From: an uncultured Candidatus Saccharibacteria bacterium
GTDB lineage: Bacteria > Patescibacteriota > Dojkabacteria > JAHIVN01
Length of the DNA: 64,000 nucleotides
Reading direction: 5' to 3'
NCBI GenBank assembly: GCA_964572065.1
Contig: CAZNER010000001.1
Span: forward strand, 504 to 64,503
The notes below the pieces were generated by a model. That model searched no databases, was not told the DNA's origin, and saw nothing but the letters and a program-made list of their open reading frames with translations. Positions within the stretch are counted from its first letter, which is position 1, and each line of letters begins with the position of its first letter. A program made the translations under genes and the position numbers. Positions 41,010 through 64,000 of this stretch are shown here, piece after piece.

Positions 41010-41034
41010 TATTAATTGTAACCAAAATGACATA

Positions 41035-41580: not shown

Positions 41581-41641
41581 TTTTCACCTCCTTTTGTAAT
41601 TAAATAAACATTTTTCTATTAAAACATTTAAAAATTTTATA

Positions 41642-41905: not shown

Positions 41906-41934
41906 AATTAAACTCCTTTTTTGTTACATTTATT

Positions 41935-41963
41935 AATATAGCACCTTTTGAATTAAAAGCCAA
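41935..41963 (-). promoter_or_regulatory. sigma70-type promoter (TTGGCT-17 nt-TATATT)
   Basis: Minus strand reads TTGGCTTTTAATTCAAAAGGTGCTATATT, preceded by an A-tract. Paralogous to 19085..19113. Confidence 0.5.
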
Positions 41964-41995
41964 ACTATTTTTTAAAATTTTTCAACTTTAACCAT

Positions 41996-42970: not shown

Positions 42971-43021
42971 ATTTAATATGAACTACGCATTAACTAAAGA
43001 CTTATGTGTTTTCTTTGTCGG

Positions 43022-48572: not shown

Positions 48573-48579
48573 AATTAAA

Positions 48580-49455
48580 TTACGACCAAGAAAACCATCC
48601 GGGCAAAACTACTTTACTTAAGTTTTTATTTTTTTGTTTTTTAAAAGGACGCCAAGGTCCGTAAACCCCCACTTTAGTAGCAGCAGTTAAACAAGCGGCC
48701 CACCACGCAAAAGTACCATGTTGAAATAAAATATTATCAAAAGATCTAATAAAATTAAAATCGGCATCTAAAGCCCGGCCACACCTTACGATCGGATCTA
48801 ATTTTTTAAATCCCGTCACTAAAGAATTCATATAATCCACAGCTAATTGTAAATTATCAATTTTTACAGTTTCTGGTATAGAAGTATGAAATCGCATTCT
48901 TTTTAATTGCGATAAAGTTATTTTATCCCAATAAGGCATATCTGTAACAATATATAATTTTTTAAAAGTAAAATAAGATATGGCTTTTAAATACATCATT
49001 ATATCTACTTTATATTCTTCTTGATAATTATAACGGTGTAATAACCTATCTCCTAATCTCAAATGAAAAACTAAATCCTTCTTATTAGTAATAGGTATTG
49101 GTACGAACCATTTTTTAATAATAGACAAATACGGTTTAAACAACCTAAAATCTTCAAAATAACCTTCTACACGAAAAAAACAATTATCATATTTTTGCTT
49201 AAAAAAAGATACGGGACAATTATTATCAGAAATTGTAATTTTTTTATCATAAACTTTAGAAGAAGATTGTTGTATAATTTGCACCCCATCTACAAAAAGT
49301 TTATTTAAATATTTAAGACCATAATACCCAGGATAAGGCAATTTCACATATAAAGGGCAATTATAAAAAAAAGCTAATAATTTACCATAAATATACTGAA
49401 ATAAATTGTTACCAAAACCGTTAGTTAAACAAACTAATACTATATTTTTACTCAT
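48580..49455 (-). CDS. GT11-like glycosyltransferase (alpha-1,2-fucosyltransferase family)
   Basis: N-terminal NGFGNNLFQY, HLRLGD, and the C-terminal GTFAWWAA motif characteristic of GT11. Confidence 0.72.
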   Translation of the reverse strand: MSKNIVLVCLTNGFGNNLFQYIYGKLLAFFYNCPLYVKLPYPGYYGLKYLNKLFVDGVQIIQQSSSKVYDKKITISDNNCPVSFFKQKYDNCFFRVEGYFEDFRLFKPYLSIIKKWFVPIPITNKKDLVFHLRLGDRLLHRYNYQEEYKVDIMMYLKAISYFTFKKLYIVTDMPYWDKITLSQLKRMRFHTSIPETVKIDNLQLAVDYMNSLVTGFKKLDPIVRCGRALDADFNFIRSFDNILFQHGTFAWWAACLTAATKVGVYGPWRPFKKQKNKNLSKVVLPGWFSWS

Positions 49456-50134
49456 ATTTTTTATTTTTAAAAAGTAAATTTCCTTGGGGTGTTTTATCTG
49501 AATACTTTGAAATCAATCCAAAATTTAATTTTTGTAAAAGTATTATTGTTTGCTTTCTATTAAGACCCCCTTCATAAGTTGTTTCCCCATATTCAGTCCA
49601 TAAATATTTTATATTATCTTTATACTTTCCAAAACCTTCAATTACTTCTTTTTCCGCTCCTTGTACATCAATCCATATAAGATCAACAGCTAATATTTGT
49701 TGTTCTGTTAACCAAGTATCTAATCGTTTTGTTTTAACATAAATTTTTGGGGCGTCTTTTACAAAAATATGTCCTTGTTTTAAAGAAGAAGCGCCAGAAC
49801 GATTTAAACGCCATTTTATATAATCTGTTCTCTTAATCCAAGCATATTTTTTAAATAAAAATTCCTTCACTTTACTTTCATAACTTTGATAAAAAGGCAA
49901 AACAGAAAAATCTTGATTAAATAAAGCATACTCAAATAAATGTAATCGAGTATCTTTTATATAATTTTTTATAACTGTTATATTTCGAGGATCGGGTTCA
50001 AAACAATACAATTTTAAATCTTTGAAGGTATTCAAAAATTTAATAGAATCTTCCCCATAATGGGCCCCAACTTCTATTATAATTGGATTTTCCTTTTGTA
50101 ATAACTGTTTAAAAATATTATGTATATTTGACAT
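49448..50134 (-). CDS. FkbM-family SAM-dependent methyltransferase
   Basis: IIIEVGAHYGEDS and LYCFEPDPRN. Confidence 0.7.
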   Translation of the reverse strand: MSNIHNIFKQLLQKENPIIIEVGAHYGEDSIKFLNTFKDLKLYCFEPDPRNITVIKNYIKDTRLHLFEYALFNQDFSVLPFYQSYESKVKEFLFKKYAWIKRTDYIKWRLNRSGASSLKQGHIFVKDAPKIYVKTKRLDTWLTEQQILAVDLIWIDVQGAEKEVIEGFGKYKDNIKYLWTEYGETTYEGGLNRKQTIILLQKLNFGLISKYSDKTPQGNLLFKNKKYE

Positions 50135-50136
50135 AG

Positions 50137-51099
50137 TTACTTCTTATGCGCATAGTATTCTTTTATATAAGCTAATACTTGTTTTGCCCTATTTCTCCAA
50201 GTATGTTCTTGTATGGCTGTTTTATAAGCAGTCTCTATTATAGCGTTTCTTTGTTGTTCATGCTCTAAATAATAATAAAATTTATCAAATAAATTCTTTA
50301 AATTATTTTTAAAAACCACACAATTAACTCCATCTTTAAAAATATCTTTATAAGTATCTGGTATTTCAGAACAAAAAAGTAAGGTTTTAGATAACCAAGC
50401 CTCAAAGTATCTTGGAGGCATATCTCCATAAGCTGAAGGTATAGACAACCACATTTTCGACTTACACATAATCTGTGCGTATTCTTTATAATTAGTAATA
50501 CGACAAGAAACAGAATCACTACCTCGTAAAAAACATTTTATATCTTCCCGTTTAGAGAAAGCCTCTTGCACTTTAATCCTCAAATTCTCTGTACTAAACG
50601 CTCCTTTCGGATAATACTTACTGTGATGTAATGCTCCCGAAAAACCAATATCATAAAAACGTTTATAGCCATAATCTTTAAAAATTGATGGATCAGCAGC
50701 ATGGCACAACCTTCTAGTTTTAATTTTCGTATTTTTTTCGTACTTTTTATACTCAGCAGCAGCGCATAAAATTAAATCGACATTATTTCTTTTACAAAAA
50801 AACAATTTCTTTTGTAAATAGTTTTGGGGTTTAAATAAATTATAAATAACCAACTGCCTCGCTTGGTTTAGCCCTTTAATACTAGAAAAAGAACGATCTT
50901 TGTTAGACCAACCTAAACCGAAAAATATAGTTTTCGGAGAAAAAGGGCAAATCCTTAATATTTCTAATATATTTTTTGGGGTTTTGTTATATAAATAACA
51001 AGGAGTTAATTTTTTCAATTCTTTATATAAACTTTTGTAAATAGGATAAGTATCTGCATAACTAGTATTTACTATAGGATCTATAAAAAGTATAGACAT
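50137..51099 (-). CDS. CgeB-like GT-B glycosyltransferase
   Basis: C-terminal PPRYFEAWLSKTLLFC...FKDGVNCVVF...YYYLEHEQQRNAI...HTWRNR resembles the CgeB/Glyco_trans_1_2 C-terminal domain. Confidence 0.55.
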   Translation of the reverse strand: MSILFIDPIVNTSYADTYPIYKSLYKELKKLTPCYLYNKTPKNILEILRICPFSPKTIFFGLGWSNKDRSFSSIKGLNQARQLVIYNLFKPQNYLQKKLFFCKRNNVDLILCAAAEYKKYEKNTKIKTRRLCHAADPSIFKDYGYKRFYDIGFSGALHHSKYYPKGAFSTENLRIKVQEAFSKREDIKCFLRGSDSVSCRITNYKEYAQIMCKSKMWLSIPSAYGDMPPRYFEAWLSKTLLFCSEIPDTYKDIFKDGVNCVVFKNNLKNLFDKFYYYLEHEQQRNAIIETAYKTAIQEHTWRNRAKQVLAYIKEYYAHKK

Positions 51100-51128
51100 A
51101 AATAAAAACCTTTCATAATTTATAAAAA

Positions 51129-51773
51129 CTAATTCAATAATGGAAAATATTTTTCATCTAAAAAAATTAAATTCCCAGTATCTACTAATAATATATAATT
51201 TTTACTTTCTCCTAAATCTTTCATGGACCAAAAAGAAGTAGAACCATCAATATCTTTTTTATGTATAGCTCCTTCTCTTTGTATAATCCAATCATCTATA
51301 CCGCTATGTTCTATTATCACAATTTTAGGTCTATAATTTGTTAAAGATTTCCAAATATGATAATCTGGACCATCAACATCAATACTTAATATATCAAAAT
51401 CTTTAATTATGGGAGTATTAGAAAGAATATTATCTAATAAAGTTCCTTTACCTGGAAGATAATGTACTATTTTGTTTCTTAAAATAACATTTTTTGGGTA
51501 TTTTAATTTCTTTATTGTCTTTTGCAATTGTCTAAATTTAATAATATCTGCTTCTATTAATACCCCTTTCCAATTTTTATTTTCTATTAAATTAAAAGTA
51601 TTACTAAAACGTTTTCCATCCCAAGCCCCAAACTCACAACACCAACCTTGATGTATATTAAGTTTATCAATTAAATAAGCTAAAATGCCATCTTCCCCGT
51701 GTTGACTATAAATACTTCGCCTTTTGCAAAGTAAGGAACTTGCATAATTTTTGGGTTGTTTTATATATTTCAT
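51129..51773 (-). CDS. FkbM-like methyltransferase (SQHGEDG subtype)
   Basis: YSQHGEDGILAYL...CCEFGAWDGKRFSNT...GVLIEAD. Paralog of 55715..56560. Confidence 0.55.
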   Translation of the reverse strand: MKYIKQPKNYASSLLCKRRSIYSQHGEDGILAYLIDKLNIHQGWCCEFGAWDGKRFSNTFNLIENKNWKGVLIEADIIKFRQLQKTIKKLKYPKNVILRNKIVHYLPGKGTLLDNILSNTPIIKDFDILSIDVDGPDYHIWKSLTNYRPKIVIIEHSGIDDWIIQREGAIHKKDIDGSTSFWSMKDLGESKNYILLVDTGNLIFLDEKYFPLLN

Positions 51774-51781
51774 ATTTACTT

Positions 51782-52492
51782 TTATTTTCTAAAATGTATT
51801 ATAGGATTTAATTTATCCGCCTTTTTAACTACATCTTTAGATATAAGTTTATAATTATATTTATTCAACAATTTACAAAACTTTTCAATCCCGTAAAAAT
51901 ACCAACGCCCATTATTCGGTGGACCATCATAATCTTTTATAAAAGTTTCTAAATTTTTGAAACCTGCTTGAAGCATTAATTTTTGTTTACCTTTTATATC
52001 ATAATATTTATCTGCATCTGCTATCATAATAAAACAGTTAGCTCCGAATTTTAATTTGTTATACAAATTTTTCAAATAAGCTTCCGCTCCGGAATAAGAA
52101 ATATGACAAAAAACATCATAAGAAAAGATATAATCTATAGTATTGTCTTTAAATACCGAACAACTAAAATCAGATACAGTAAAATATTTAATATATTCTC
52201 TTTTAGGAATACGCTTCCAAAAACCTGTATGTATAGGATCTGAAATATCAATACAAAACAACTGTCCAGCATTAAGCATTTTCTGTGTCCAAAAACCCCC
52301 ATCTGCTCCTATTTCTAAAATAGTAGTTTTTGGAGTAATATAAGGAATAATACAAATACTAACTATCTGTTCTAAATCTTGGAATTTAGATAAACGACAA
52401 GCTTTCTTCCAACCGAGTTGTGCTCGGGAAGTACCATTTTTCCAAAAAACTTTTAAACTTTTTATTTCTTTTTTAAGCTTATTAATAATCAT
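51782..52492 (-). CDS. class I SAM-dependent methyltransferase
   Basis: Motif I ILEIGADGGFWT. Confidence 0.55.
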   Translation of the reverse strand: MIINKLKKEIKSLKVFWKNGTSRAQLGWKKACRLSKFQDLEQIVSICIIPYITPKTTILEIGADGGFWTQKMLNAGQLFCIDISDPIHTGFWKRIPKREYIKYFTVSDFSCSVFKDNTIDYIFSYDVFCHISYSGAEAYLKNLYNKLKFGANCFIMIADADKYYDIKGKQKLMLQAGFKNLETFIKDYDGPPNNGRWYFYGIEKFCKLLNKYNYKLISKDVVKKADKLNPIIHFRK

Positions 52493-52537
52493 TTTATAAT
52501 TCTTAATATGATATACTGTGTTTATTTGTTTATATAC

Positions 52538-52565
52538 AATATATAATCAATTCCTTAAAAGCCGA
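52538..52565 (-). promoter_or_regulatory. sigma70-type promoter (TCGGCT-16 nt-TATATT) inside the glycan block
   Basis: Minus strand reads TCGGCTTTTAAGGAATTGATTATATATT. Same GGCTTTT...TATATT architecture as 19085..19113 and 41935..41963. Confidence 0.4.
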
Positions 52566-52655
52566 CTCATGGGTACTACAATTATCCTCAAAGCTTTTTC
52601 CTTTTGTTCTAAACGTTTTAATAAATTATCTTATAAAAATAAATAATCAGAATAT

Positions 52656-53303
52656 TTATTCGTAATCTTTCAAAGTAAAAGCAAAATAATCAATTTCTTT
52701 TTTAAACTTCTTATATACTAAAGCGGCCGTTTCTTTATTATAATATTCAACAAAAGACTTACTATGGTTATAAGATCCTACATTTAATTTTAAATTTTTA
52801 TTGTATTTTTTAATATTCAAACGATTTAAAATAATTGCTAAATCTTTATTAAAATTTTCATAACGACCTATAAAATCAAAAATGGGCTTGTTTTTAATTA
52901 CAGTAAGATAGTATTGGTCAATCCAAAAATCATAAATATCTTTATTGGGTATTACAATGTTTTTAATAAAATTTTCAAAAGAAGTACCTGGGCGTTTATC
53001 ATAATGCCAATTAGATACTAAAAGATCATATTTATTTCTAATAAAAGTAAATTTAAAATAAGCATCCCATTCTTTTACTATGTTTTTAAAATACTCAAGT
53101 TTATTATTATAAGACAGTTTTTTGTTTGTTAATACTCTCTCATCTATTCCATTATTTCTTAAAATCTGGGTGATTGTGCTTCCTCCAGTTTTAGCTATGT
53201 GAAAGTATAAAATTTTCTTTTCTTGATTAAGTACGAATGGTGTCAATAAAGTTTGTCCTTTGCCGTCCATTCTAGCAAATTTAGTTAAAATATTAGAATA
53301 CAC
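52656..53303 (-). CDS. sulfotransferase (carbohydrate sulfotransferase-like family)
   Basis: 5'-PSB-like FHIAKTGGSTI and 3'-PB-like FIRNKYDLLVSNW. Confidence 0.6.
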   Translation of the reverse strand: MYSNILTKFARMDGKGQTLLTPFVLNQEKKILYFHIAKTGGSTITQILRNNGIDERVLTNKKLSYNNKLEYFKNIVKEWDAYFKFTFIRNKYDLLVSNWHYDKRPGTSFENFIKNIVIPNKDIYDFWIDQYYLTVIKNKPIFDFIGRYENFNKDLAIILNRLNIKKYNKNLKLNVGSYNHSKSFVEYYNKETAALVYKKFKKEIDYFAFTLKDYE

Positions 53304-53315
53304 AAATAACTCCTA

Positions 53316-54017
53316 TTAAAAAATTTTTTGTATATAAAAAGCTGGTATGTTGTTTTGTTTTAATAGCAATTCCTTATAATTATTATTCAATAAATCTACT
53401 ATATTTTTAGGATAAACTTTATAATCTGCTTTACTACAAACAAATGTTTTTTGTAATTGTAAAGCAAAAACTTCTGGCAATTCAAGAAACGCCGCCAATT
53501 CTTTTGTATTTTTTTGCAAAAACTCATATTTTAAAAACAGCAATTTAGGATGTTTAAATTTTAACCAAGATAGAAAAAATCCTGTAAAATCTAAAAAATC
53601 TGGATAATCTTCCAAAAAAGTTTTTAACGATATATCTTGTAAAGTTAATTTTTTAGATATACCAAAAGGTATACTTAATTGCACAAATCGTCTAGTACTA
53701 AAAAAATAATCGTCCCCTAATTTCCGAAAACGATCACACCGCCTTATATGCGACAATAAAGCGTTTCTTGGATCTCTATAAACAAAAATTATCTTATCCA
53801 ATGTTTTATAATTTATATTTGGTTTAGTATGATGTATATAGGAATGTATATTACTAGGAAATTTAACAGATAAATATTTATTAATAAAAGAGTTTAAAAA
53901 TTTAAACCCAGAACCCCCATAACTAAATAATTTAACTCCAGTAAATAACTCTTTATTATTCTTAATTATTTTAGGTAACTTATATACCCGAAACATATCT
54001 TTATCTAAACCTTTCAT
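53316..54017 (-). CDS. sulfotransferase-like protein (paralog A)
   Basis: SYGGSGFKF (P-loop-like PAPS 5'-phosphate site) and VYRDPRNALLSHIRR (3'-PB-like). Paralog of 55059..55664. Confidence 0.45.
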   Translation of the reverse strand: MKGLDKDMFRVYKLPKIIKNNKELFTGVKLFSYGGSGFKFLNSFINKYLSVKFPSNIHSYIHHTKPNINYKTLDKIIFVYRDPRNALLSHIRRCDRFRKLGDDYFFSTRRFVQLSIPFGISKKLTLQDISLKTFLEDYPDFLDFTGFFLSWLKFKHPKLLFLKYEFLQKNTKELAAFLELPEVFALQLQKTFVCSKADYKVYPKNIVDLLNNNYKELLLKQNNIPAFYIQKIF

Positions 54018-54043
54018 AAATTATTTCCTATATCTAAAATAAA

Positions 54044-54940
54044 TTATTTTTTATTGTCTTTAATGCTCGGAGCTATGTCGTGTAAATGCCTATATAATCC
54101 TTGATTATGATAACCTTTTTCTACAACCTTTAAATTATAAATAGGTTTATTGTCGTATATTAAATAGAACAAGCTATATAATTCATTATCCCCCCATCTA
54201 TATTTATAAATACCTCCAGCACTATTTATAGCCGCTACCCACTTCTTCCATAAAATAGAACGAAACATAGAAGTCTTCATTATATAAGAATCTGCCCAAG
54301 GCAAAAAATGAAAATTTTCTTCTGCTTTGTTATCTTCTAACAGATTTTGTAATAATCTGGACTTAGGCGTTATATTATTTACAAGCAAAAAATTCTTTGT
54401 AAATTGCCATAAATTAATTCTGGTATCTAAATGTCCTTGATGTGGTTTTCCGTTTTTAAGTCTTTGACCCACTATTAAAGCTCCCATACTTTCAGTTCTT
54501 TTACTCATAAACTCAAATGGATCATAAGGCAATTCTTTAATATAACCAGATTCATCATCATAAAAAGCTATATAATCGTAATTTTTAAATTCTGTATTTG
54601 GATAATTATAACAATTAACTATAAAATGACACATATGTAAATAACCTTTTCGAGCAATAGAAAAAGCTTTTTTAACATACCAAAGATTCGTACGATTATA
54701 AAATAATTCTTTTTTTGATATGTGTTTTGGAGTATTGTAATCTATTCTTCGGAAATAAATATTTTTCGAGATCGTATCCCAAACCCTTTTTCTAAAATCT
54801 ACATCTTCGTAAACAGTATCAAAGTAATATACATAAACAGGATAATTATGTTTATAATTATAATAAGTAAATAAAGATTGTAAAAACCTCGGCAAACATT
54901 TTTTTCGAGAAGAAAGTAAATTTATACAAGCTTTTAACAT
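54044..54940 (-). CDS. GT15-like (Kre2/Mnt1-type alpha-1,2-mannosyltransferase family) glycosyltransferase
   Basis: ACINLLSSRK...YPVYVYYFD...F and GYLHMCHF...YDYIAFYDDESGYIKELPYDPFEFM parallel the fungal Kre2/Mnt1 conserved blocks (YRHMCR, YDxF.FM), by eye. Confidence 0.55.
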   Translation of the reverse strand: MLKACINLLSSRKKCLPRFLQSLFTYYNYKHNYPVYVYYFDTVYEDVDFRKRVWDTISKNIYFRRIDYNTPKHISKKELFYNRTNLWYVKKAFSIARKGYLHMCHFIVNCYNYPNTEFKNYDYIAFYDDESGYIKELPYDPFEFMSKRTESMGALIVGQRLKNGKPHQGHLDTRINLWQFTKNFLLVNNITPKSRLLQNLLEDNKAEENFHFLPWADSYIMKTSMFRSILWKKWVAAINSAGGIYKYRWGDNELYSLFYLIYDNKPIYNLKVVEKGYHNQGLYRHLHDIAPSIKDNKK

Positions 54941-55004
54941 TTCTTTAAATCCTCTTTGTAAAGATTTTTTATAGTTTAAATAAGTTTATTATATTTCTCT
55001 TTAA
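54894..55004. repeat. direct repeat copy A (about 110 bp)
   Basis: Nearly identical over the first ~75 nt to 55676..55783 (one T-tract length difference, one G/A change), then about 80-90% identical. Contains the real start of 54044..54940 plus a decayed copy of the 3' end of 55715..56560. Confidence 0.85.
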
Positions 55005-55058
55005 AACCTTAAACTTGTAATTATTAATAAACAATCAAATACCCATAATTATAAATTA

Positions 55059-55664
55059 CTATTGCTTTACAAAGAAGGGAGGTAAAGAATCCTGTAATTT
55101 TATCAATTTTTCATATCTTTGAGTTAATAACTTTTGAATCTGTAAATCCTTTGAAAGATAATCAGAAATTCTATGTTTAAAGGTTTTTCGTAAAACAATA
55201 GCATAATTGGAATCGAGTTTTAAAAACTTTAACAACTCATTTATAATTTGAGGCAATTTTTCGTATCTAACAAAAATTAGAGAATTTCCCGGTCCAGGAT
55301 TAAAATCAAACCACGCTTTAAAATAGTCATATAATTCAAAAATATCTTCAGAATAATTCATCAAAAAAGTTTCTAAATTAAAATTTAATGGTACCATCTT
55401 CCTTTTAATACTGTGATTAATAAAAAACATATTTATCCAATTTTTATTTTTGCCGTTTTGACTCCTTTTCCATTCTTGTCTTCTAAAAAAAGATAGCACA
55501 GCATTACGAGGATCTCCATAAATAATTATATGAATATTACACAATCCGGGAATTGGCCTGCGGTGTGGGTTGTGCTTAGAATTTCGTACTACTACATATT
55601 TTTCTAAAAAAGAAACTAAAAAGTGATAACCGCAACCACCATAACTAAATATTCGAATACTCAT
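55059..55664 (-). CDS. sulfotransferase-like protein (paralog B), bracketed by direct repeats
   Basis: SYGGCGYHF and IYGDPRNAVLSFFRR. TAAGGAG upstream. Confidence 0.45.
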   Translation of the reverse strand: MSIRIFSYGGCGYHFLVSFLEKYVVVRNSKHNPHRRPIPGLCNIHIIIYGDPRNAVLSFFRRQEWKRSQNGKNKNWINMFFINHSIKRKMVPLNFNLETFLMNYSEDIFELYDYFKAWFDFNPGPGNSLIFVRYEKLPQIINELLKFLKLDSNYAIVLRKTFKHRISDYLSKDLQIQKLLTQRYEKLIKLQDSLPPFFVKQ

Positions 55665-55673
55665 AATTGCTCC

Positions 55674-55721
55674 TTAAACATTTTTTCGAGAAGAAAGTAA
55701 ATTTATACAAGCTTTTAACAT
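55674..55721 (-). pseudogene. 15-codon 5' remnant of the GT15-like gene
   Basis: ATGTTAAAAGCTTGTATAAATTTACTTTCTTCTCGAAAAAATGTTTAA duplicates codons 1-13 of 54044..54940, then stops. The stop overlaps the SD of 55059..55664. Confidence 0.7.
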
Positions 55722-55783
55722 TTCTTTAAATCCTCTTTATAAAGATTTTTTATAATTTGAATAACTTTATCATATTCTTTAAT
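55676..55783. repeat. direct repeat copy B (about 108 bp)
   Basis: See 54894..55004. This copy contains the intact 3' end of 55715..56560 plus the truncated GT15-like start. Confidence 0.85.
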
Positions 55784-56560: not shown

Positions 56561-56566
56561 TTATAT

Positions 56567-57544
56567 TTACTCTTTAGATTTTAATATCTGATTTACAATC
56601 CAAGGATAAGTTTTTATTAAACCTTCTTTTAAAGTATATTGAACTTTCCAACCTAAAGTTGCTATTTTGTTACTTATTAAAACTCTGGCTTCTACGCCAA
56701 CGGGCCCCGGAATTGAATGTAATTTTATAGTTTTATTGGCTACGCTGGCTATAGTAGCTGCTAACTCTGTTACAGAAACAAATTCTGCTGAACCAATGTT
56801 TGCTGGTTCAGTTAAAGAAGATTGCATTAATATATATATACCCTTAATAGTATCATCTATGTAAGTATAAGAACGTACAGCCGTACCATCCCCCCAAATA
56901 TCTATAGTACTGCCATCGTTCGCTATAGCTATTTTACGGCATAAAGCCGCGGGAGCCTTTTCTCTACCTCCTCGCCAAGTACCTTCTGGCCCATAACAGT
57001 TTTGAAATCTAGCTATTCTAATAGTCATGCCATATTTACGACCGAAAGCAGCAATCATGCGTTCTGTATATAATTTCTCCCAACCATATTCGTTGTCTGG
57101 AAAAGCTGGATAAGCAGCTTCTTCCGGCAAAGCTTTTTCTCCTATACGCATATTTCTATAAACACAAGCAGAAGAAGAAAAGAAATATTTTTTAACGCCT
57201 TTTTTAGCACAAGCATGAATCATATGAATATTTATTAAAGCGGAATTGTGCATGATTTCACATTCTGCAGATTCAATAAAACCCATACCTCCCATATCTG
57301 CTGCGAGTTGGTATACTTCATCGGGTACTTGTTTGTTGTCTATATCCATATCTTTTATATCGACAGCTTTTATACAATTTCCTGGATCTCTCAAATCTAA
57401 TAAAAGAAAATCGTCTGCTGTGCTGGCTGAAAATTCTGGGTGTTTCAAATCAACCCCTCGAACCCAATAGCCTTCTTTTTTAAGTTTCTTGACTAAATGA
57501 GAACCTATAAAACCGCCAGCTCCTGTCACTAAAGCTGTTTTCAT
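56567..57544 (-). CDS. GDP-mannose 3,5-epimerase-like NAD-dependent epimerase
   Basis: VTGAGGFIGSH, LAADMGGMGFI, SSACVY, YGWEKL, RFQNCYGPEGTWRGGREKAPAALCRK, WGDGTAVRSYTYIDD and IPGPVGVEAR follow the plant GME sequence block by block (from memory). Confidence 0.8.
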   Translation of the reverse strand: MKTALVTGAGGFIGSHLVKKLKKEGYWVRGVDLKHPEFSASTADDFLLLDLRDPGNCIKAVDIKDMDIDNKQVPDEVYQLAADMGGMGFIESAECEIMHNSALINIHMIHACAKKGVKKYFFSSSACVYRNMRIGEKALPEEAAYPAFPDNEYGWEKLYTERMIAAFGRKYGMTIRIARFQNCYGPEGTWRGGREKAPAALCRKIAIANDGSTIDIWGDGTAVRSYTYIDDTIKGIYILMQSSLTEPANIGSAEFVSVTELAATIASVANKTIKLHSIPGPVGVEARVLISNKIATLGWKVQYTLKEGLIKTYPWIVNQILKSKE

Positions 57545-57567
57545 AATAATACTCCTTTCTTAAATAA

Positions 57568-58113
57568 TTATTGATATACCCCTTCAATTTTAAACTTTAC
57601 ATTTTTAATATCTTTTAATTGTTGAATTAAAAAATCATGTTTTAATTTTGAATACCCCGTCTTAGTATAATGAAATTCTACAGATAAATCATTTATATAG
57701 TGAATAGTCTTGTCTTTAAGCATTTTTTGTAATACCTCATATTCCGCGCCTTCAATATCCATCCTTAAAATAATATAATCATCTTTCTTGAAAGTTCTAA
57801 CTAACCAATGACTAAAATCTATACATTTAACTTTAAAAGCTGCTTCTTTATCTACATTATTTTTACTTCCGATAAGTGTACTACCTGTCGCTGTTAATTT
57901 TTTTGAATTAATAAAAAACTCTACCCAACCATAATATATCCATAAAGCATAATCTAAAAATAATATATCTTCCCTATTTACTAAATATTTCTTAAAATAA
58001 GGATTTGGTTCAAAACAATAAATCTCAAAAGAAGGTTCATAAAAACTTTCTTGTTTAAAAGCCTCTATAGATTGGCCTTTGTGGCCTCCGGCGTCTATAA
58101 AAATTTTTCGCAT
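57568..58113 (-). CDS. FkbM-family methyltransferase
   Basis: IFIDAGGHKGQS and IYCFEPNPYF. Confidence 0.65.
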   Translation of the reverse strand: MRKIFIDAGGHKGQSIEAFKQESFYEPSFEIYCFEPNPYFKKYLVNREDILFLDYALWIYYGWVEFFINSKKLTATGSTLIGSKNNVDKEAAFKVKCIDFSHWLVRTFKKDDYIILRMDIEGAEYEVLQKMLKDKTIHYINDLSVEFHYTKTGYSKLKHDFLIQQLKDIKNVKFKIEGVYQ

Positions 58114-58133
58114 ATATTTATCTTAAAAATATA

Positions 58134-59042
58134 TCAAAACAAACAACTTTGTAATACTTCTAAATATTGTTTAGAAACATGACTAATTTGTAAAATCTCA
58201 GGCAATTTCACTCTATCTCTTTTAAAATACTTTTCATGTAAAGCTTTTAACAATTTTTGTTCTATAATATTAGGTAAAATATTAAAAGATTCTTTATAAT
58301 AGTCAATCTTTTCTTCTTTTTCTTCTCCCGATAATATAATACAACCTTCAATAAGTCGAGACATTTCTGTCGCCCCACCGCAGGCATCCGTAGTAATAAT
58401 GGGTATACCAGCGCCTACTATTTCTAGAAAAGCGTTTGGACACCAATCTTTTTTTGCTATATAAATCCCTAAATCCATTTTTTGTAAAAGGGCTTTAATC
58501 TGTTCTTGATTTCTTTGTCCATGATATTTTACATTAATAATATTTCTTTGTATATCTGGGTTACCTATTACGTGTAAAAAACTATTAGGATGTTTTACTA
58601 CAAACTTTTCAAATATATTTAATATCTCTTTTAACCTTTTCCAACGTCGCCAAGAAGCTAATACTACTATATTAAATTCTTTATGGGGTATATAAGAACT
58701 ACACCAATTTGGTTCTATGCCATTATATATTATTGTATTTTTATTTTCTGGTACTTGTAAATATTGTTGACAAACTTTTTTACAAAAACTACTTTGATAA
58801 ACAACTTTACAAGCAATTTGGGTACTTTTTCGTACTTTAGAAATATGGCTTTTATCGTTCAAAAATAAACCGTCTAATCTTAAAACTTTGGGTAAGTTCG
58901 TTTTGGTTTTAAATTCTATAAAAGAAAGATGTATATTCGCTTTTTTAAAATCAGAAACTATGTTATGATTTAAATTTTTCCAATGGGGTATTAACCTTTG
59001 AGTAAATATATGGGTTTTACCATTATCAATAAAAATATTCAT
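58134..59042 (-). CDS. GT-B (GT4-like) glycosyltransferase
   Basis: C-terminal FLEIVGAGIPIITTDACGGATEM (EX7E-type region). Confidence 0.6.
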   Translation of the reverse strand: MNIFIDNGKTHIFTQRLIPHWKNLNHNIVSDFKKANIHLSFIEFKTKTNLPKVLRLDGLFLNDKSHISKVRKSTQIACKVVYQSSFCKKVCQQYLQVPENKNTIIYNGIEPNWCSSYIPHKEFNIVVLASWRRWKRLKEILNIFEKFVVKHPNSFLHVIGNPDIQRNIINVKYHGQRNQEQIKALLQKMDLGIYIAKKDWCPNAFLEIVGAGIPIITTDACGGATEMSRLIEGCIILSGEEKEEKIDYYKESFNILPNIIEQKLLKALHEKYFKRDRVKLPEILQISHVSKQYLEVLQSCLF

Positions 59043-60983
59043 TTATAAAGTTTGTGCCTTTAAAAAAACTTGTTTATAACGTAAATTAACATCTTCAATA
59101 TTTAAATTTGGAATTTTTGTTTTTATTCTATCTTGATATTTAAAATAAGAATTAAATAATCCACGTATTTGTTCTGCGCCGAGCTTAGATAAAGAAGTTA
59201 TATAATCTTTTTTTTGAGTGTCTACCTCTAAAACTTTTCCGGTATTACCTACAAAAATTCCCACAGAACCACCTTGAATACAAATAATAGGTACACCACA
59301 AACAAAACTTTCTAAAACTATATTCTGCCAATCATCAGGCAAAGGATGATATAAAGCATCTAATTTATTATATATTTCAAGTCGTTTTTTTGCATCTGGT
59401 TTGCTAAAATAAGTATATATATTATCTTGCAATTTATACAATATAGTTTTAGACATATTATCTCTAAAATGTTTTTGACATTCTTTATTAATTTTTCCAA
59501 TAAAAAACAAATTCATAGAATAATTCTTTCTCTTGCATTCAAAAAATATCTCAAATAAACTATTTATCTGAAAAGGATATTCAAAAGGTCCAAAAATACC
59601 AACGTTTTGTAATTTTCTATTTCTTCCTCGATATTTAAAAAATTCTAAATCTACATTATTTTGTATGATATCGAAATTTTTCTCTCTAAAATATAAGGCA
59701 TCGGCTTTATTTTTTATATGTATATTAGAATATATTACAAAATCGGCATTTTTAAGACAGAAAAGAACTTTACTATTATATTCTTTCATGCGTTTTGTAA
59801 AAGTTGTTTGTAACATCTCATAAAATATAGAGTAATAAAAACTCGAAAGTTTAAAAACAATTTTAATATTTTTTTCTTTTAACGAATTTAAAATTTCTTG
59901 ATCAAAAAAAGTATTATCATAAAAAGCCGCTATTCCTTTTTTCGGTTGTCGTACTATATTTACATATTTTGTATCTATAGTAGTTTTATATTTATCTTCT
60001 GCTTTTAAAAAAATAGTACAAGATTTATACTTAGGATTCTTTAACACTTTTTCATAAATAGTAATTAATTTTTGGCCTGTTTGTTTCCAAGTAAAATTAT
60101 TTAATATAAATTTATGTAATTTATCATTCAAAGGAGTTTTTAAAACTTTATTTAAAGTTTCTTTCATACTAGACAAACTAGAAGTACAATAAAAACCGTA
60201 ACCCCCTAAATATTCTTCTATGCAACCTACTTTTGTAGTAATTACGTGACAACCCGCAGCAGCCCCCTCAATACAAGCAAGTGAGGCAACTTCTGATGTC
60301 GATGGTTGCATAACAATACTAGCTTTCTTAAAAACTTCAATCATCTGTTCATGCGGTATCCAATCATTAAATTTTATATTATGATTTGAAGCTTCTTTTA
60401 TGCATTTATCATAATAATTATAGTCACTGCGTTCTTTACGGCCATAAAAATCTATCGGTATATTATATTCCTTTGCAACTTTTATAGTAGCCAATTGATT
60501 TTTCAATCCGCAATAAGGACCTACTTGTATTATTTTGCTTTCTTTTTTATTTATAGGTAAATCTTTAAATAAAGAAGCTTCTACACCATTATGTACTATA
60601 TAACAATTTTTTTGGTTTTTAAAACCAGCACTTATAGCATCTTGTTTTTCCCTTTTTCCCAAAAAAATAACAGCTTCAGCTTCTCTAAAACAATTATCAT
60701 AACATTGATAATGCCTACCTTGTTTATGATAATTGGAAAGGCCCCAATAAATAGGAGACCAAACAATAGGTTTAGATAAGCTATGAGCTATTTTTATATA
60801 AGTATAAGCTTTCACAAATAAATGAATAACATCAAAATCTTTTAAGTGTTTATGATCACTAGTAGTTTTAAGAAAAACTTTATATCCAAGTTTTTCTATA
60901 GCTTTCGCTGTTTCTATAATTTGTACTGCATGACCACCTTTGGGTAAACACCTCAATCCTGGCATCCAAAGACAGATATTCAT
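59043..60983 (-). CDS. two-domain GT-B glycosyltransferase
   Basis: The N-terminal half has GGHAVQIIE...PSTSEVASLACIEGAAAGCHVITTKVG. The C-terminal half has a second GT1-like LESFVCGVPIICIQGGS. Confidence 0.65.
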   Translation of the reverse strand: MNICLWMPGLRCLPKGGHAVQIIETAKAIEKLGYKVFLKTTSDHKHLKDFDVIHLFVKAYTYIKIAHSLSKPIVWSPIYWGLSNYHKQGRHYQCYDNCFREAEAVIFLGKREKQDAISAGFKNQKNCYIVHNGVEASLFKDLPINKKESKIIQVGPYCGLKNQLATIKVAKEYNIPIDFYGRKERSDYNYYDKCIKEASNHNIKFNDWIPHEQMIEVFKKASIVMQPSTSEVASLACIEGAAAGCHVITTKVGCIEEYLGGYGFYCTSSLSSMKETLNKVLKTPLNDKLHKFILNNFTWKQTGQKLITIYEKVLKNPKYKSCTIFLKAEDKYKTTIDTKYVNIVRQPKKGIAAFYDNTFFDQEILNSLKEKNIKIVFKLSSFYYSIFYEMLQTTFTKRMKEYNSKVLFCLKNADFVIYSNIHIKNKADALYFREKNFDIIQNNVDLEFFKYRGRNRKLQNVGIFGPFEYPFQINSLFEIFFECKRKNYSMNLFFIGKINKECQKHFRDNMSKTILYKLQDNIYTYFSKPDAKKRLEIYNKLDALYHPLPDDWQNIVLESFVCGVPIICIQGGSVGIFVGNTGKVLEVDTQKKDYITSLSKLGAEQIRGLFNSYFKYQDRIKTKIPNLNIEDVNLRYKQVFLKAQTL

Positions 60984-61663
60984 TTTTTATTTCTCCAATG
61001 TTGTTGTATTTTTCTAACCCATTCTTGTTGTTCCGCGTTTCTTGTTCTACTCATTTGATTTGCGTGTCCTTTCCATATACAACAGAAATGGTTTATTTTC
61101 GCTATCTTGAAACCTTTAAAAACCAGACGTAACCACATATCATAATCACCACAACAAATAATCTTATCATTATAACCGCCCGCATCAAAAAAAGCTTTTT
61201 TACGATAAGCGACGCTTGAATGACATATTGGATTACAAGTAAGTAACCTTTGTTTACTAAAATTTGGAGTAGGTTTAATAGGTTTAGAACCCAAAAACCA
61301 ATCACCGCATACTAAAGTTACGTCTTTATGTCTGTCTAAATAATCGCATTGTATAATTAATCTGTCATTAGTCATCATATCATCAGAATCTAACTCTACT
61401 ATATAATCTCCAACAGCTTTTTTATTACCGTAATTTCTAGCATTAACCCATGTATTATAATGTTTATCTAATTTATAAACTCTTAATCTTGGATATCCGG
61501 CTTTTTGTAAAAAAGATACTGTTTTATCGGTAGAACCGTCATCTACTACTATAATTTCGAAGTCATCAAAACCAGTACAAGAAGTATTTAAGTAGACACT
61601 TTCAAGACAACGTTCTATAAATTTTCTAGAATTATATGTTGGAATTACAACAGAACATTTCAT
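60980..61663 (-). CDS. GT2 family glycosyltransferase
   Basis: VVIPTYNSRKFIERCLESV, IIVVDDGSTD and ELDSDD. Confidence 0.85.
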   Translation of the reverse strand: MKCSVVIPTYNSRKFIERCLESVYLNTSCTGFDDFEIIVVDDGSTDKTVSFLQKAGYPRLRVYKLDKHYNTWVNARNYGNKKAVGDYIVELDSDDMMTNDRLIIQCDYLDRHKDVTLVCGDWFLGSKPIKPTPNFSKQRLLTCNPICHSSVAYRKKAFFDAGGYNDKIICCGDYDMWLRLVFKGFKIAKINHFCCIWKGHANQMSRTRNAEQQEWVRKIQQHWRNKK

Positions 61664-62643
61664 GTTTTAAACTCTTTATATGATTCCGTATATTTAAATA
61701 TGGGTATTCTTCCAAGGAAATACAAAACTTTTGAATATTCTTTTTGTTCTGTTCCTTGATTTGTTTCTATTTTTTTCACTTGGTTAACCAATAAATCTTC
61801 TTCTTTTTGAATACATTTAACTTCTTTTCTTGTTTCAGTTTCGATATTTATAGGAATTATCGGTTCCTGTCGCTTTTTGATATCTTTAAACTTCCAAGCT
61901 TTCCTTTTTAATTTCTCATGCTTTTCCATATCAATATATTTATTATTCCAAACTTCAGGACAAAAATCATTATAATAAGGACCTGCAGCATGAAAGCATT
62001 TTACATCTTTTAATATACCCGCTCTTAAATGGTTTTGTTCAAGCCGCTTTATATAATTACCATCTTCAAAAAAATAAATACGATCTTTTAAATAAATAAA
62101 TTCCCCTACTTTATCATATACTGTTCTCGGAATCATAGAACACCAACCACCAACTGGTCCGTATTTAATAACGAAATCTTCATAATTCTTTTCTGTATAT
62201 TGATAGTCTGCCCAAATACCTCCATTCGTATGTTCGTTCTGTACTACGTCTAAAGCTAAAAAACCTAATAACTTATCTTTATGAAAAGCTTTTAACATTA
62301 AATAAATAAAATCTCTATCTGGCAAATCAATAACATCATCATCAATCTCTAAAAAATGAGTACCAGTAGCTAATCTAGCTAACAAACAAAAAGCATTACA
62401 ACCAATATTAGTATGAAAATTTATACCGTAAAAATCTTGTATAAATTTATTTTTTTGTTTTAAATTATTTAAAGACAAATTATTAATAAAAGAAGCAGTA
62501 TTATCTGTACTGCCATTATTCCATATAAGTAACTCAAAAGGATGTCGTATTTTATTTATTATAGCATTAAAACATTTTTCAAACAATGGAAATCTATTAT
62601 AAGTTACTAATAATATACTAACATAATTGCCTGTTTTTTTCAT
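61660..62643 (-). CDS. GT2-like glycosyltransferase
   Basis: SILLVTYNRFPLFEKC, LLIWNNGSTDNT and EIDDDV. Confidence 0.7.
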   Translation of the reverse strand: MKKTGNYVSILLVTYNRFPLFEKCFNAIINKIRHPFELLIWNNGSTDNTASFINNLSLNNLKQKNKFIQDFYGINFHTNIGCNAFCLLARLATGTHFLEIDDDVIDLPDRDFIYLMLKAFHKDKLLGFLALDVVQNEHTNGGIWADYQYTEKNYEDFVIKYGPVGGWCSMIPRTVYDKVGEFIYLKDRIYFFEDGNYIKRLEQNHLRAGILKDVKCFHAAGPYYNDFCPEVWNNKYIDMEKHEKLKRKAWKFKDIKKRQEPIIPINIETETRKEVKCIQKEEDLLVNQVKKIETNQGTEQKEYSKVLYFLGRIPIFKYTESYKEFKT

Positions 62644-63212
62644 ATTTTTCTACCTATACAACCAAGACCGCAACCCGATCTTTCTTCATTATAAACAAAA
62701 TCTTTATGAGCATTTAAAAATTTTTTTACTCCTCGCATTAAATCTATACCGGGAGTTGCTATGTCATGTAGTAATATATAACCATCATCTTTTATTTTCT
62801 TATACCACAAAGTAAGCTCTTTATATATATGCCCTTCTGTATGTTCTGTATCTATAAATAATAAATCTATAGTTCTTTTTTCCCAACTTTTATGGGCTTC
62901 TAGACTAGATTCGGTATTAAAAGTCCAAAAATCATTAAATTTATTAGAATCTCCCAATCTTTCTATAAAAGTAGTGTTTGGAGGACCGACCCGTTTTTGT
63001 AGGGGTATTATATCATAACTATATAAATGACCCCCAACTGTAACTATCCCGGCAAGTAATGCTTGTGTTGAAACTCCTCCTCTTACTCCCAATTCTACTA
63101 CAGTTTTAGCATTTAAATATATAACAAAATTCATCAAAACTGTAAGATGCGGTCTTATATCAGAAGATATTTTAGATAATCCCTTTAAATTATCTAATAA
63201 TAATTTTTGCAT
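62640..63212 (-). CDS. class I SAM-dependent (O-)methyltransferase
   Basis: VVELGVRGGVST and LLFIDTEHT. Confidence 0.6.
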   Translation of the reverse strand: MQKLLLDNLKGLSKISSDIRPHLTVLMNFVIYLNAKTVVELGVRGGVSTQALLAGIVTVGGHLYSYDIIPLQKRVGPPNTTFIERLGDSNKFNDFWTFNTESSLEAHKSWEKRTIDLLFIDTEHTEGHIYKELTLWYKKIKDDGYILLHDIATPGIDLMRGVKKFLNAHKDFVYNEERSGCGLGCIGRKI

Positions 63213-63214
63213 TT

Positions 63215-64000
63215 TTAAGTTAAAAAATCAAATTTATGTTTTTCCAATCCTGTTAATTTTTCTTTCCAATCCTTCATAAAAACATCTCTACTGTTATTAT
63301 AATATTGTTCAACTTGGGGACTCATAGAACCGTGTTGCATATGTATAATAGACGCTAAACCATTATATAAAATAGTATAGCCAGCTTCTATAGCTCTAAG
63401 CATCATTTCTGTTTCCTCATAATACATAAAATATCTTTCATCAAAACCTTTTAATTCATCAAAAACTTCTTGCTTCCATAACATACAACAACCAGACACT
63501 CCTTGTACTTTTTTAACATAATTGTATTGACCCCGATCCATCTCTAGTCCCCCAAAATTGTGTCCTTTAAAAGTATTTGTAGGCATTAAGGTGCCCGCAG
63601 ACATTATATTGCCATCCAAGTTAATACATTTAGGCCCAACACAAGCAACTTTATCATCAAAAGAATATAAAGTATCACTTAAAATAGTTAACCAATAAGC
63701 GTCACATACAATAGTATCATTATTCAAAAACAAGTAATCTACATTACCAAACTGTTCTTTTGCAAAAGTAACTCCTTGATTACAAGCTTTTGCAAAACCT
63801 TTATTCTCATTATTAAGTATAGCATAACAAAACTTTTGATTTTGTAACTGCTGTCTTGTTTCATCTGTAGAATTGTTATCTACCACAATAAGTTCATAAT
63901 CTATATGTTGTCTGCTTTGTTGTGTATTATGTATTATAGACTCAATACACTGTTTTGTAAGCTGCCATTTATTATAAGTAACAAAAATAATCGCTATTTT
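63215..64000 (-). CDS. GT2 family glycosyltransferase (5' end beyond the window)
   Basis: The frame stays open to the window edge: ...IAIIFVTYNKWQLTKQCIESI...LIVVDNNSTDET...FLNNDT. The ORF-track start at 63886 is internal. Confidence 0.75.
   Translation of the reverse strand, partial: KIAIIFVTYNKWQLTKQCIESIIHNTQQSRQHIDYELIVVDNNSTDETRQQLQNQKFCYAILNNENKGFAKACNQGVTFAKEQFGNVDYLFLNNDTIVCDAYWLTILSDTLYSFDDKVACVGPKCINLDGNIMSAGTLMPTNTFKGHNFGGLEMDRGQYNYVKKVQGVSGCCMLWKQEVFDELKGFDERYFMYYEETEMMLRAIEAGYTILYNGLASIIHMQHGSMSPQVEQYYNNSRDVFMKDWKEKLTGLEKHKFDFLT

Follow-up and report, generated by a model that had tools for sequence, protein, structure and literature searches.

The stretch of DNA considered here is a 64,000-nucleotide segment (hereafter the window) of contig CAZNER010000001.1 in assembly GCA_964572065.1 (positions 504 to 64,503), deposited under the name of an uncultured Candidatus Saccharibacteria bacterium. 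Its last quarter is occupied by a block of consecutive genes for enzymes that build and tailor glycans, and the block is embedded in phage DNA. The window has a GC content of about 29% and a steady negative GC skew, and nearly all of its genes lie on the minus strand. Searches against PHROGs identified the terminase large subunit TerL (12376..14280), a ribonucleotide reductase (RNR, 15473..17848) and a family-A DNA polymerase (PolA, 33391..35910), together with a primase, a DnaB helicase, a SNF2-type helicase and a sigma factor.

Layout and ownership of the gene block

Within the window the block comprises 18 consecutive minus-strand open reading frames (ORFs) that run from 48580 to the edge at 64000, where the last one (63215..) is truncated. 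Most of these ORFs are separated by -8 to +50 nt, and two wider gaps measure 118 and 163 nt. The downstream border is formed by the phage sigma-factor gene, 7 nt away, behind which the replication genes follow. An earlier reading made from the letters of the window and its ORFs (the sequence-only reading) had described this layout correctly, but its estimate of 18 enzymes in 15 kb has to be enlarged. The overlapping Logan contig L001 is identical to window positions 59958..64000 (0 mismatches in 4043 bases) and reaches virtual coordinate 73169. In this contig the block continues for another 3.9 kb with two additional glycosyltransferase (GT) genes, g19 and g20, and is followed by a 73-aa holin-like protein with one transmembrane (TM) segment, an Amidase_2 endolysin and Ser/Thr-rich fibre-like proteins. 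The extension past 64000 that the sequence-only reading had recommended thus places the upstream boundary at the holin-like gene and the endolysin, with lysis genes and fibre-like proteins immediately upstream of the block. In full, the block spans about 19.3 kb and encodes 20 enzymes, namely ten GT proteins (about 12 GT domains), six methyltransferases, three sulfotransferase-type proteins and one epimerase. Window and overlapping contigs together provide about 73.8 kb of sequence for this phage; an exact 36-mer search of IMG/VR and JGI metagenomes for an extension beyond L001 gave 0 matches.

The enzyme families of the block are like those of bacterial surface-polysaccharide loci, and a bacterial O-antigen or capsule locus mis-assembled onto phage DNA near 48573..48579 would look similar. 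Such an artefact is extremely improbable. The junction between the sigma-factor gene and g01 is crossed by two Logan contigs from different runs (43448..54929 with 1 mismatch, 43448..53593 with 0), and L001 passes the far border into the endolysin. In relative synonymous codon usage (RSCU) the block and the phage core correlate as closely (r = 0.987) as one half of the core does with the other (0.988), and GC content at third codon positions (GC3) is 17.3% in the block and 17.4% in the core. Moreover, the enzyme module recurs on 16 IMG/VR contigs and was never met as a block in the cellular loci recovered from 185,579 species genomes.

The block also contains a promoter-like motif of the phage. 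The pattern GGCTTTT-N9-15-TATATT occurs exactly three times in the window (19085..19111, 41935..41961 and 52538..52563), always on the minus strand and in intergenic DNA, against 0.18 occurrences expected; three or more were reached in 1 of 100 shuffles. These are the sites that had been proposed as a promoter type common to the block and the rest of the phage segment. In its longer form the motif reads TTGGCTTTT-N12-13-(A/G)CTATATT, the copy in the block being TCGGCTTTT...TTATATATT, and three groups of genes are each preceded by a copy; the phage's own sigma factor may recognise this motif. A generic sigma-70 promoter and terminator scan was uninformative in this AT-rich DNA (129 promoter-like sites vs 109 expected). 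Spanning contigs, codon usage, GC3 and phage genes on either side all bear out the claim that the block is phage-borne, and contigs, codon usage and motif exclude, at the level of the assembly, the chimeric join that the sequence-only reading had named as its refutation.

Enzyme families of the block

Families were assigned with Pfam, NCBIfam, PHROGs, sequence and profile searches of the PDB, AlphaFold models, and Foldseek against the PDB and BFVD (Table 1). Taken together, these searches uphold the original family calls, with a few divergent members. None of the 20 block enzymes has a predicted membrane helix, and scans of the block with Pfam, PHROGs and NCBIfam gave no match to a priming transferase, flippase, polymerase or ABC exporter.

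Table 1. Genes and sites of the glycan block and its downstream border, in window coordinates. Pfam cutoffs are 22 bits for PF03567 and PF00685, 22.7 bits for PF05050 and 25 bits for PF01793; SAM, S-adenosylmethionine; PAPS, 3'-phosphoadenosine-5'-phosphosulfate.
Feature	Assignment	Position	Strand	Evidence and remarks
sigma	phage sigma factor	47790..48572	minus	phrog_351 E 1.6e-27 and Sigma70_r4
g01	GT11-like (alpha-1,2-fucosyltransferase-fold) GT-B glycosyltransferase	48580..49455	minus	AlphaFold model and motifs; core trio
g02	FkbM-family SAM methyltransferase	49448..50134	minus	PF05050 46.2 bits; homologs of 42-52% identity in 12 related loci
g03	Glyco_trans_1_2 (CgeB-type) glycosyltransferase	50137..51099	minus	PF13524 70.1 bits; core trio
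g04	divergent FkbM-like methyltransferase	51129..51773	minus	PF05050 27.1 bits, partial match
g05	class I SAM methyltransferase (Methyltransf_11/23/25)	51782..52492	minus	Pfam; homologs of 40-61% identity in related loci
promoter-like motif	GGCTTTT-N13-TATATT	52538..52563	minus	163-nt gap upstream of g05
g06	Sulfotransfer_2-family (carbohydrate-type) PAPS-dependent sulfotransferase	52656..53303	minus	PF03567 40.9 bits
g07	divergent sulfotransferase-fold protein	53316..54017	minus	PF00685 21.5 bits, below cutoff
g08	GT15-like (Kre2/Mnt1-type alpha-1,2-mannosyltransferase), soluble	54044..54940	minus	PF01793 40.1 bits; core trio
g09	paralog of g07, more degenerate	55059..55664	minus	32% identical to g07, E 2e-25
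g10	divergent FkbM-like methyltransferase	55715..56560	minus	PF05050 22.4 bits, slightly below cutoff
g11	GDP-mannose 3,5-epimerase (GDP-D-Man to GDP-L-Gal/GDP-L-gulose)	56567..57544	minus	E 3.4e-81 vs 2c59
g12	FkbM-family methyltransferase	57568..58113	minus	PF05050 46.2 bits
g13	GT4/Glycos_transf_1	58134..59042	minus	PF00534 39.9 bits; homologs in 13 related loci
g14	646-aa GT4, probable degenerate second GT-B half	59043..60983	minus	N-terminal PF00534 68.3 bits
g15	GT2	60980..61663	minus	PF00535 102.5 bits
g16	GT2	61660..62643	minus	PF00535 40.6 bits
g17	Methyltransf_24 class I methyltransferase	62640..63212	minus	PF13578 67.2 bits
g18	GT2 domain, C-terminal part of a 664-aa GT4-like/GT2 protein	63215..64000, cut by edge	minus	Pfam and L001 (complete there, N-terminus GT4-like)
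g19	GT2, 231 aa	beyond window, in L001		next after g18
g20	GT4, 405 aa	beyond window, in L001		next after g19; last enzyme of block

The eight GT proteins that had been recognised in the window all stand, with the caveats that one second GT domain is weak and that g01 is GT11-like by fold and motif. The weak domain belongs to g14, which had been read as a GT4-like protein with two GT domains: the first is confirmed, and the C-terminal half matches PF00534 below threshold (17.4 bits, E 0.0033). Since a hydrophobic stretch of this protein (residues 555-574) falls inside the region of that sub-threshold match, it is more plausibly a buried segment of the GT-B core than a TM helix.

The most divergent transferase, g01, matches no Pfam family even at E <= 1, no NCBIfam family and no PDB entry by sequence or profile, and belongs to a family of at least 474 unnamed metagenomic proteins. 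Its AlphaFold model (mean predicted local distance difference test score, pLDDT, 92.6) has FUT8, AtFUT1 and NodZ as top PDB fold matches (probability about 1, TM-score 0.38-0.46). In BFVD the top matches are phage and Mimiviridae proteins annotated as GT11 or Fut1_Fut2-like (E 3.9e-11 to 2.8e-9, TM-score up to 0.69), the best being 'Glycosyl transferase family 11 [uncultured Caudovirales phage]' (E 3.9e-11, TM-score 0.60/0.69). Among the homologs of g01, TNGFGNNLFQY and HxRxGDR (H131, R133, G135, D136, R137) are invariant, while the CAZy GT11 sequence model PF01531 gives no match. The GT11-like call of the sequence-only reading consequently holds by fold and motif and fails by the family's sequence model, and g01 is best filed, on its modelled fold and its GDP-binding HxRxGD-type motif, as GT11-like and not as a GT11 member.

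The GT15-like protein g08 can be placed more directly. The profile of its family finds the enzymes Kre2/Mnt1 (1s4n, E 3e-12) and Ktr4 (E 4e-11) in the PDB, and the motifs GYLHMC[HN]F and YRWGDNE, invariant in 18 homologs, align with SYRHMCRY and ERWGDAP of 1s4n. The type II topology of GT15 enzymes (N-terminal membrane anchor, Golgi lumen) is lacking: g08 has no hydrophobic segment (maximum 19-residue hydropathy 0.65), and its Pfam match begins at profile position 73. By its sequence g08 is thus a predicted soluble, prokaryote-virus version of GT15.

The epimerase-like enzyme noticed at the outset is clearly a GDP-mannose 3,5-epimerase (GME), since g11 matches Arabidopsis GME (2c59) over its full length (residues 6-324) far better than the next family, UDP-glucose 4-epimerase (E 8.8e-25). 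Its translation contains SSACVY, YGWEK and GGREKAPAA, which are candidate equivalents of the catalytic Cys/Lys pair of AtGME and of the YxxxK motif of short-chain dehydrogenases/reductases (SDR). The GC content of g11 is comparatively high (36%), which raised the possibility of a recent capture; this idea was rejected because the surplus comes from the first and second codon positions, GC3 being only 22%.

All six predicted SAM methyltransferases were recovered. Four are of the FkbM type, two with strong (g02, g12) and two with weak matches (g04, g10), one is of the Methyltransf_11 type and one of the Methyltransf_24 type. The two weak members are paralogs of one another (E 1e-26), and homologs of g10 with 44-55% identity are present in 10 related loci, giant-virus-binned contigs among them.

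Three proteins had been credited with PAPS-binding sulfotransferase motifs. For g06 this is correct: YFHIAKTGGS, the 5'-phosphosulfate-binding (5'-PSB) loop, and FTFxRNKxDxLxS, the 3'-phosphate-binding (3'-PB) motif, are invariant in five homologs. A scan of IMG/VR with the single g06 protein gave no matches; an alignment was required as query and detected Sulfotransfer_2 homologs on at least 34 IMG/VR contigs. For g07 and g09 the fold and the homology are confirmed and the canonical motifs are not. The first 42 structures that the g07 model (pLDDT 78.5) matches by fold in the PDB are all sulfotransferases; g09 has no Pfam match. Their family counts 403 representatives, and a 49-sequence profile that includes g09 matches SULT7A1 (E 1.7e-8), 46 of its 48 matches being sulfotransferases. 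In this family SYGGSG aligns with SYPKSGT, the PSB-loop Lys being replaced by Gly throughout. The 3'-PB Arg is kept in g07 (YRDPRNALLS) and replaced by Gly in g09.

Related viral loci and other features of the phage

The block is not the one-off that it first seemed but one version of a module that is widespread in uncultured viral contigs. At least 225 homologs of g08 were found, all of them metagenomic; several are from Tara Oceans and one is labelled as <0.22 µm fraction. The g08 gene is carried by 16 IMG/VR contigs and by one 345.5-kb NCBI contig (L019, GCA_044240345.1), which also encodes a homolog of g06 with 62% identity. When all block proteins were compared with these loci by tblastn, the trio g08, g03 and g01 was present in every related viral locus with enough flanking sequence. 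GT4 and GT4/GT2 genes occur in most related phage loci, methyl- and sulfotransferases vary between loci, and g07, g09, g14-g17 and g19 were seen in this phage only. The contigs across which the module is conserved range from 29% to 46% in GC content, and at least six distinct contigs with the module encode sulfotransferases.

The relatives differ in their supply of sugar nucleotides. A 170-kb IMG/VR contig (L005) has no GME-type epimerase and encodes a GDP-mannose 4,6-dehydratase and a GDP-fucose synthase about 1-2 kb downstream of its g01 homolog, past one other SDR gene. GDP-L-fucose (GDP-L-Fuc) and GDP-L-galactose (GDP-L-Gal) are the two L-galacto-configured GDP-sugars and differ at C6 only. 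The contig L068 (GC 28.7%), whose GT15 is among the closest to that of the window (66% identity), has an adenosine-5'-phosphosulfate (APS) kinase in its module (10612..11133, P-loop LTGLPCSGKTT), three SDR sugar-nucleotide enzymes and a 402-aa protein matching Methyltransf_13/14 (6715..7923), which we take to be of the sugar C-methyltransferase type. From these genes, phages related to the window phage would appear to invest in PAPS supply and in branched or methylated sugars. Two further observations concern individual modules. That of L019 (3502..4419, 11543..12589) has sulfotransferase genes of the Sulfotransfer_1 as well as the Sulfotransfer_2 type; a ThyX gene splits it, and an IS1595-family transposase is close by. 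L005 encodes a radical-SAM/SPASM protein (11781..12635) within its module.

Two contigs binned as giant-virus metagenome-assembled genomes (IMG/VR GVMAG; L017 and L018, GC 19.5% and 24.6%) carry clustered homologs, with 28-46% identity, of six block genes (g01, g02, g03, g04/g10, g05 and g08). The flank of L018, coding on both strands, contains genes for ABC1 kinases, an aminoacyl-tRNA synthetase-like protein, Gmd-like and RmlD-like proteins and a DegT aminotransferase. The early-promoter octamer of Mimiviridae, AAAATTGA, is not enriched in L018 (3 vs 7.9 expected) and lends no support to the giant-virus assignment. Judged by their sequences, the genes of these contigs would reflect either a cross-realm sharing of the glycan module or a binning artefact.

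A tblastn search of 50,697 GenBank phage records gave no match to g08 and one weak match to g03, and window 40000..64000 has no match to GenBank phages at the DNA level. The 185,579 cellular species genomes yielded 10 distant single-gene GT15 matches (26-34% identity) without synteny. The cultured relatives of PolA and TerL are only distant (26-35% identity), and the phage can therefore not be classified; in IMG/VR the sigma factor has one distant related locus, which has no adjoining block.

Several other features of the phage may be recorded. The fibre-like protein upstream of the lysis genes (L001 1239..4013, virtual ~69157..71931) has 924 aa, 20% of them Ser or Thr. It carries the SGSI motif six times, whereas shuffled versions average 0.19 and 0 of 2000 reach that count. 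A neighbouring 241-aa protein (L001 500..1225, virtual ~71945..72670) has two PSGS[L/V] motifs, and the motif is found in no other protein of the window. The SGSI-type motif may be a repeat with a structural role or a possible site for glycosylation. No homologs of the two proteins were found in PHROGs, Pfam, GenBank phages or IMG/VR. On the minus strand the phage also encodes a preQ0/7-deazaguanine set (36601..37329, 9926..10894, 14296..14964 and 38462..39193) composed of a GTP cyclohydrolase I (235 bits), a QueD-like 6-pyruvoyltetrahydropterin synthase (PTPS) fused to a phosphoribosyltransferase-like domain, QueC (199 bits) and a QueE-like radical-SAM protein. This gene set suggests 7-deazaguanine modifications in the phage DNA; the scanned ORFs yielded no transglycosylase of the DpdA type. 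The ORFs 36601..37329 and 37151..37957 (minus strand) overlap by 179 nt, and the GTP cyclohydrolase I match begins at residue 65 of the downstream ORF, whose true start codon probably lies further in than listed. A patatin-like phospholipase (3543..4502, minus strand, 60.7 bits), unusual for a phage, is encoded amid small unknown ORFs and possibly acts on host membranes. Two contigs (L030 and L031; JGI 3300029258, ENA ERZ27256770) both stop 589-592 bp left of the window start, and this common end at about 590 bp may be a terminus of the genome or a repeat at which assemblies stop.

As to the host, a search for tRNA genes found none. Shine-Dalgarno (SD)-like sites precede 28 of 54 genes, compared with a background of 13%. 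Bacteroidota rarely use SD sites, so the sites argue weakly against a Bacteroidota host. Such hosts have been described for the 'moraphages', a lineage of large phages from aquatic habitats with four core GTs (PMC12619734).

Proposed glycan pathway, its rivals and its significance

That the phage could make a methylated, sulfated heteroglycan is a well-founded prediction, because the enzyme families hold and the block is phage-borne; the recurrence of the module in relatives and the APS kinase in one of them reinforce it. What the glycan is made for is less certain. We tentatively propose that a soluble, phage-owned module assembles an O-methylated, sulfated mannose/L-galactose glycan in the cytoplasm, most likely on virion proteins. 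Host GDP-mannose would be the direct donor for the mannosyltransferase g08, and g11 would convert part of the same substrate to GDP-L-Gal for g01. This donor is what we infer for g01 because a fucosyltransferase fold fits L-galacto-configured donors and because relatives supply GDP-L-Fuc. The remaining GT2, GT4 and CgeB-type transferases would then extend a hetero-oligosaccharide stepwise by single sugars, the six methyltransferases would O-methylate it, and one canonical and two divergent sulfotransferases would sulfate it with host PAPS. Sulfation is credible because L068 carries an APS kinase and because a sulfotransferase paired with a sulfate adenylyltransferase (SAT)/APS kinase is a parallel in the fibril-glycosylation clusters of Megavirinae (PMC10117803). 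The acceptor would be a structural protein of the phage in the cytoplasm, from capsid, tail or fibre, and the product a charged, methyl-capped glycan coat of the virion that may modulate adsorption, stability or recognition.

A cytoplasmic protein acceptor is proposed because genes for a priming transferase, flippase, polymerase or exporter are missing from the roughly 73.8 kb and because the core genes also occur in giant-virus-binned contigs. The virion is favoured because the enzymes are soluble, because the core is apparently common with eukaryotic viruses and is kept across contigs of 29-46% GC, and because the block adjoins fibre-like proteins and lysis genes. Several points weigh against this proposal. 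Capsid and tail genes are not among the roughly 73.8 kb of phage sequence, and genes for the supply of PAPS or GDP-mannose are not present in the window. The proteins g07 and g09, having no canonical PSB-loop lysine, may lack activity or depend on a different donor. L017 and L018 are putatively assigned to giant viruses on the binning of the source together with the content of the flanks. The five distal genes have a promoter-like site and tight spacing in common with the sigma-factor and replication genes, a hint that they are expressed early or midway and not late. Finally, GT2 and GT4 enzymes need no TM helices to act peripherally on host intermediates linked to undecaprenyl diphosphate, and because they can work at the membrane the missing export genes are also compatible with a target in the host envelope.

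Remodelling of that envelope is the main rival to a virion target, and we hold it to be somewhat unlikely. The transferases would here modify host lipid-linked precursors of O-antigen, capsule or S-layer glycan at the inner face of the membrane; the host would prime and export these precursors, and infected cells or their debris would show an altered, methylated and sulfated glycan at the surface, which could block superinfection, spare progeny from being lost on debris or deter grazers. This is the usual proposal for the GT sets of the cyanomyoviruses P-SSM2, S-SCSM1 and S-SCSM2R (PMC12801897), GT2, GT4 and GT11 are typical of O-antigen loci, and the distal genes are apparently co-transcribed with early-type replication genes. 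However, the block lacks not only a priming transferase, flippase, polymerase and exporter but also a ligase, and all TM helices. Its core genes are found in giant-virus-binned contigs, whose eukaryotic hosts would have no bacterial envelope, and the syntenic module is not found in cellular genomes. The contigs of 29-46% GC also suggest varied hosts, which is awkward for a pathway built on the lipid-linked precursor of one host.

The virion proposal has two further competitors. One is a free, lipid-linked or metabolite-linked oligosaccharide, sulfated and methylated, that would serve inside the infected cell as compatible solute, signalling glycoside or glycolipid. All enzymes being soluble, this is conceivable, and FkbM and Methyltransf_24 enzymes are also used in the tailoring of natural products. 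It is nevertheless improbable, given that ten GT proteins with about 12 GT domains are far above the usual need of small-molecule glycosylation, that the scanned parts of the roughly 73 kb hold no aglycone-building genes, and that a conserved core with variable tailoring would seem typical of surface antigens under diversifying selection. The other is hypermodification of DNA, in which the GTs would decorate modified phage bases to evade restriction; phage GTs are known to place diverse glycans on 5-hydroxymethylcytosine (5hmC) DNA (Pyle et al., bioRxiv 10.1101/2023.12.21.572611). Against it, the annotated genes of the window include no enzyme generating 5hmC or 5-hydroxymethyluracil (5hmU), and the phage has the preQ0/7-deazaguanine pathway (FolE, QueD-like, QueC, radical-SAM enzyme) instead. 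We know of no DNA-glycosylation precedent for GT15-like, GT11-like, FkbM and carbohydrate-sulfotransferase families combined with a supply of GDP-L-Gal, and consider this use of the block highly improbable.

Among the closest known systems are the autonomous glycosylation clusters of Megavirinae and chloroviruses, for which glycosylation of capsid fibrils has been proposed and which in Moumouvirus australiensis and Cotonvirus include a predicted sulfotransferase and SAT/APS kinase (PMC10117803). Like these, the block combines many soluble GTs, some of them multi-domain, with sugar-nucleotide enzymes and sugar methyltransferases; the six clustered homologs in the two giant-virus-binned contigs and the frequency of GT11-like folds among Mimiviridae proteins add to the likeness. 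It differs in its carrier, a tailed phage of bacteria (TerL, sigma factor, Amidase_2 endolysin, SD-like sites), and in its sugars, which would be GDP-Man and GDP-L-Gal as opposed to the UDP-Rha, viosamine, bacillosamine and quinovosamine of Megavirinae. The virion target has been shown for some giant viruses, whereas here it is proposed from the genes.

A mechanistic precedent comes from mycobacteriophages, whose GTs glycosylate their own capsid and tail-tube proteins according to the summary given in PMC12619734 (Freeman et al. 2023); phage Maravista has two putative GTs (PMC11256854). The mechanism is the one proposed here, phage GTs acting on the phage's own virion proteins, but only few GTs are involved there, compared with ten GT proteins here. 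To our knowledge, virion glycosylation in these mycobacteriophages involves neither sulfo- or methyltransferases for tailoring nor an enzyme of sugar-nucleotide supply. The block of the window belongs with both types in being a cluster of virus-encoded soluble GTs with a donor-sugar enzyme.

Cyanomyoviruses are likewise marine and rich in GTs (GT11, GT2 and GT1 included) and NDP-sugar epimerases, the roles of which are also presumed. They show no sequence relationship to the block (GT15 without a match and CgeB-like with one weak match in GenBank phages). They are also T4-like, whereas the phage of the window has a family-A DNA polymerase, is not T4-like and holds its genes in one contiguous block. 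FkbM methyltransferases, sulfotransferases and GDP-mannose 3,5-epimerase are not named among the genes of the S-SCSM2R type (PMC12801897). Bacterial O-antigen and capsule loci also have GT2, GT4, GT11-like proteins, a GDP-sugar epimerase, and methyl- and sulfotransferases. The block differs from such Wzx/Wzy and ABC-transporter loci in having no priming transferase, flippase, polymerase, chain-length regulator or exporter, and cellular genomes hold only distant single-gene homologs of it.

These comparisons temper two statements of the sequence-only reading. Glycosylation was said to be rarely so elaborate in phages, yet S-SCSM2R is known to carry 13 GTs and 22 'cell wall synthesis and modification' genes (PMC12801897). 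Sulfation was said not to be a standard phage function; g06 is by sequence a sound member of Sulfotransfer_2, the Sulfotransfer_2 homologs in IMG/VR show that it is not isolated, and sulfotransferase and APS-kinase genes are known from giant-virus clusters (PMC10117803). In the literature on combinations of phage sulfotransferase, FkbM and GT15 no description of the module was found, and, judged by the GenBank phage collection and the literature open to searching, the module family is previously undescribed. Its distinctive predicted traits are a soluble GT15, a new GT11-like family, an interchangeable supply of GDP-L-Gal or GDP-L-Fuc, multiple FkbM methyltransferases and recurrent sulfation.

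Glycosylation by virus-encoded enzymes is well established in giant viruses and in a few mycobacteriophages and has been guesswork for marine phages. The present data indicate a conserved and self-contained glycan pathway in marine phages that are abundant and uncultured; its donor chemistry is predictable, GDP-Man first and then GDP-L-Gal or GDP-L-Fuc, and predicted sulfation and methylation recur. They also offer concrete enzymes for study: the soluble GT15, the GT11-like family of at least 474 unnamed proteins and the lysine-less sulfotransferase family with its 403 representatives. The apparent sharing of core genes with giant-virus contigs would document that genes for decorating virions have passed as a module from one viral realm to another. 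A virus-specific module common to marine tailed phages and giant viruses, its core trio fed by GDP-L-Gal or GDP-L-Fuc and varied between lineages through methyl- and sulfotransferases and in one relative an APS kinase, coating virions with sulfated, O-methylated fucose/galactose/mannose glycans, is a speculative and rather unlikely extension of this. If true, it would provide the first virus-made sulfated glycans on phage particles; these glycans might resemble algal sulfated fucans and galactans and affect how particles stick to hosts, marine gels and grazers. More generally, if the glycan is carried by virions, the pathway would bear on the charge and stickiness of the particles, on their adsorption to hosts and marine gels, on virus decay and on the viral share of sulfated and methylated sugars in dissolved organic matter.

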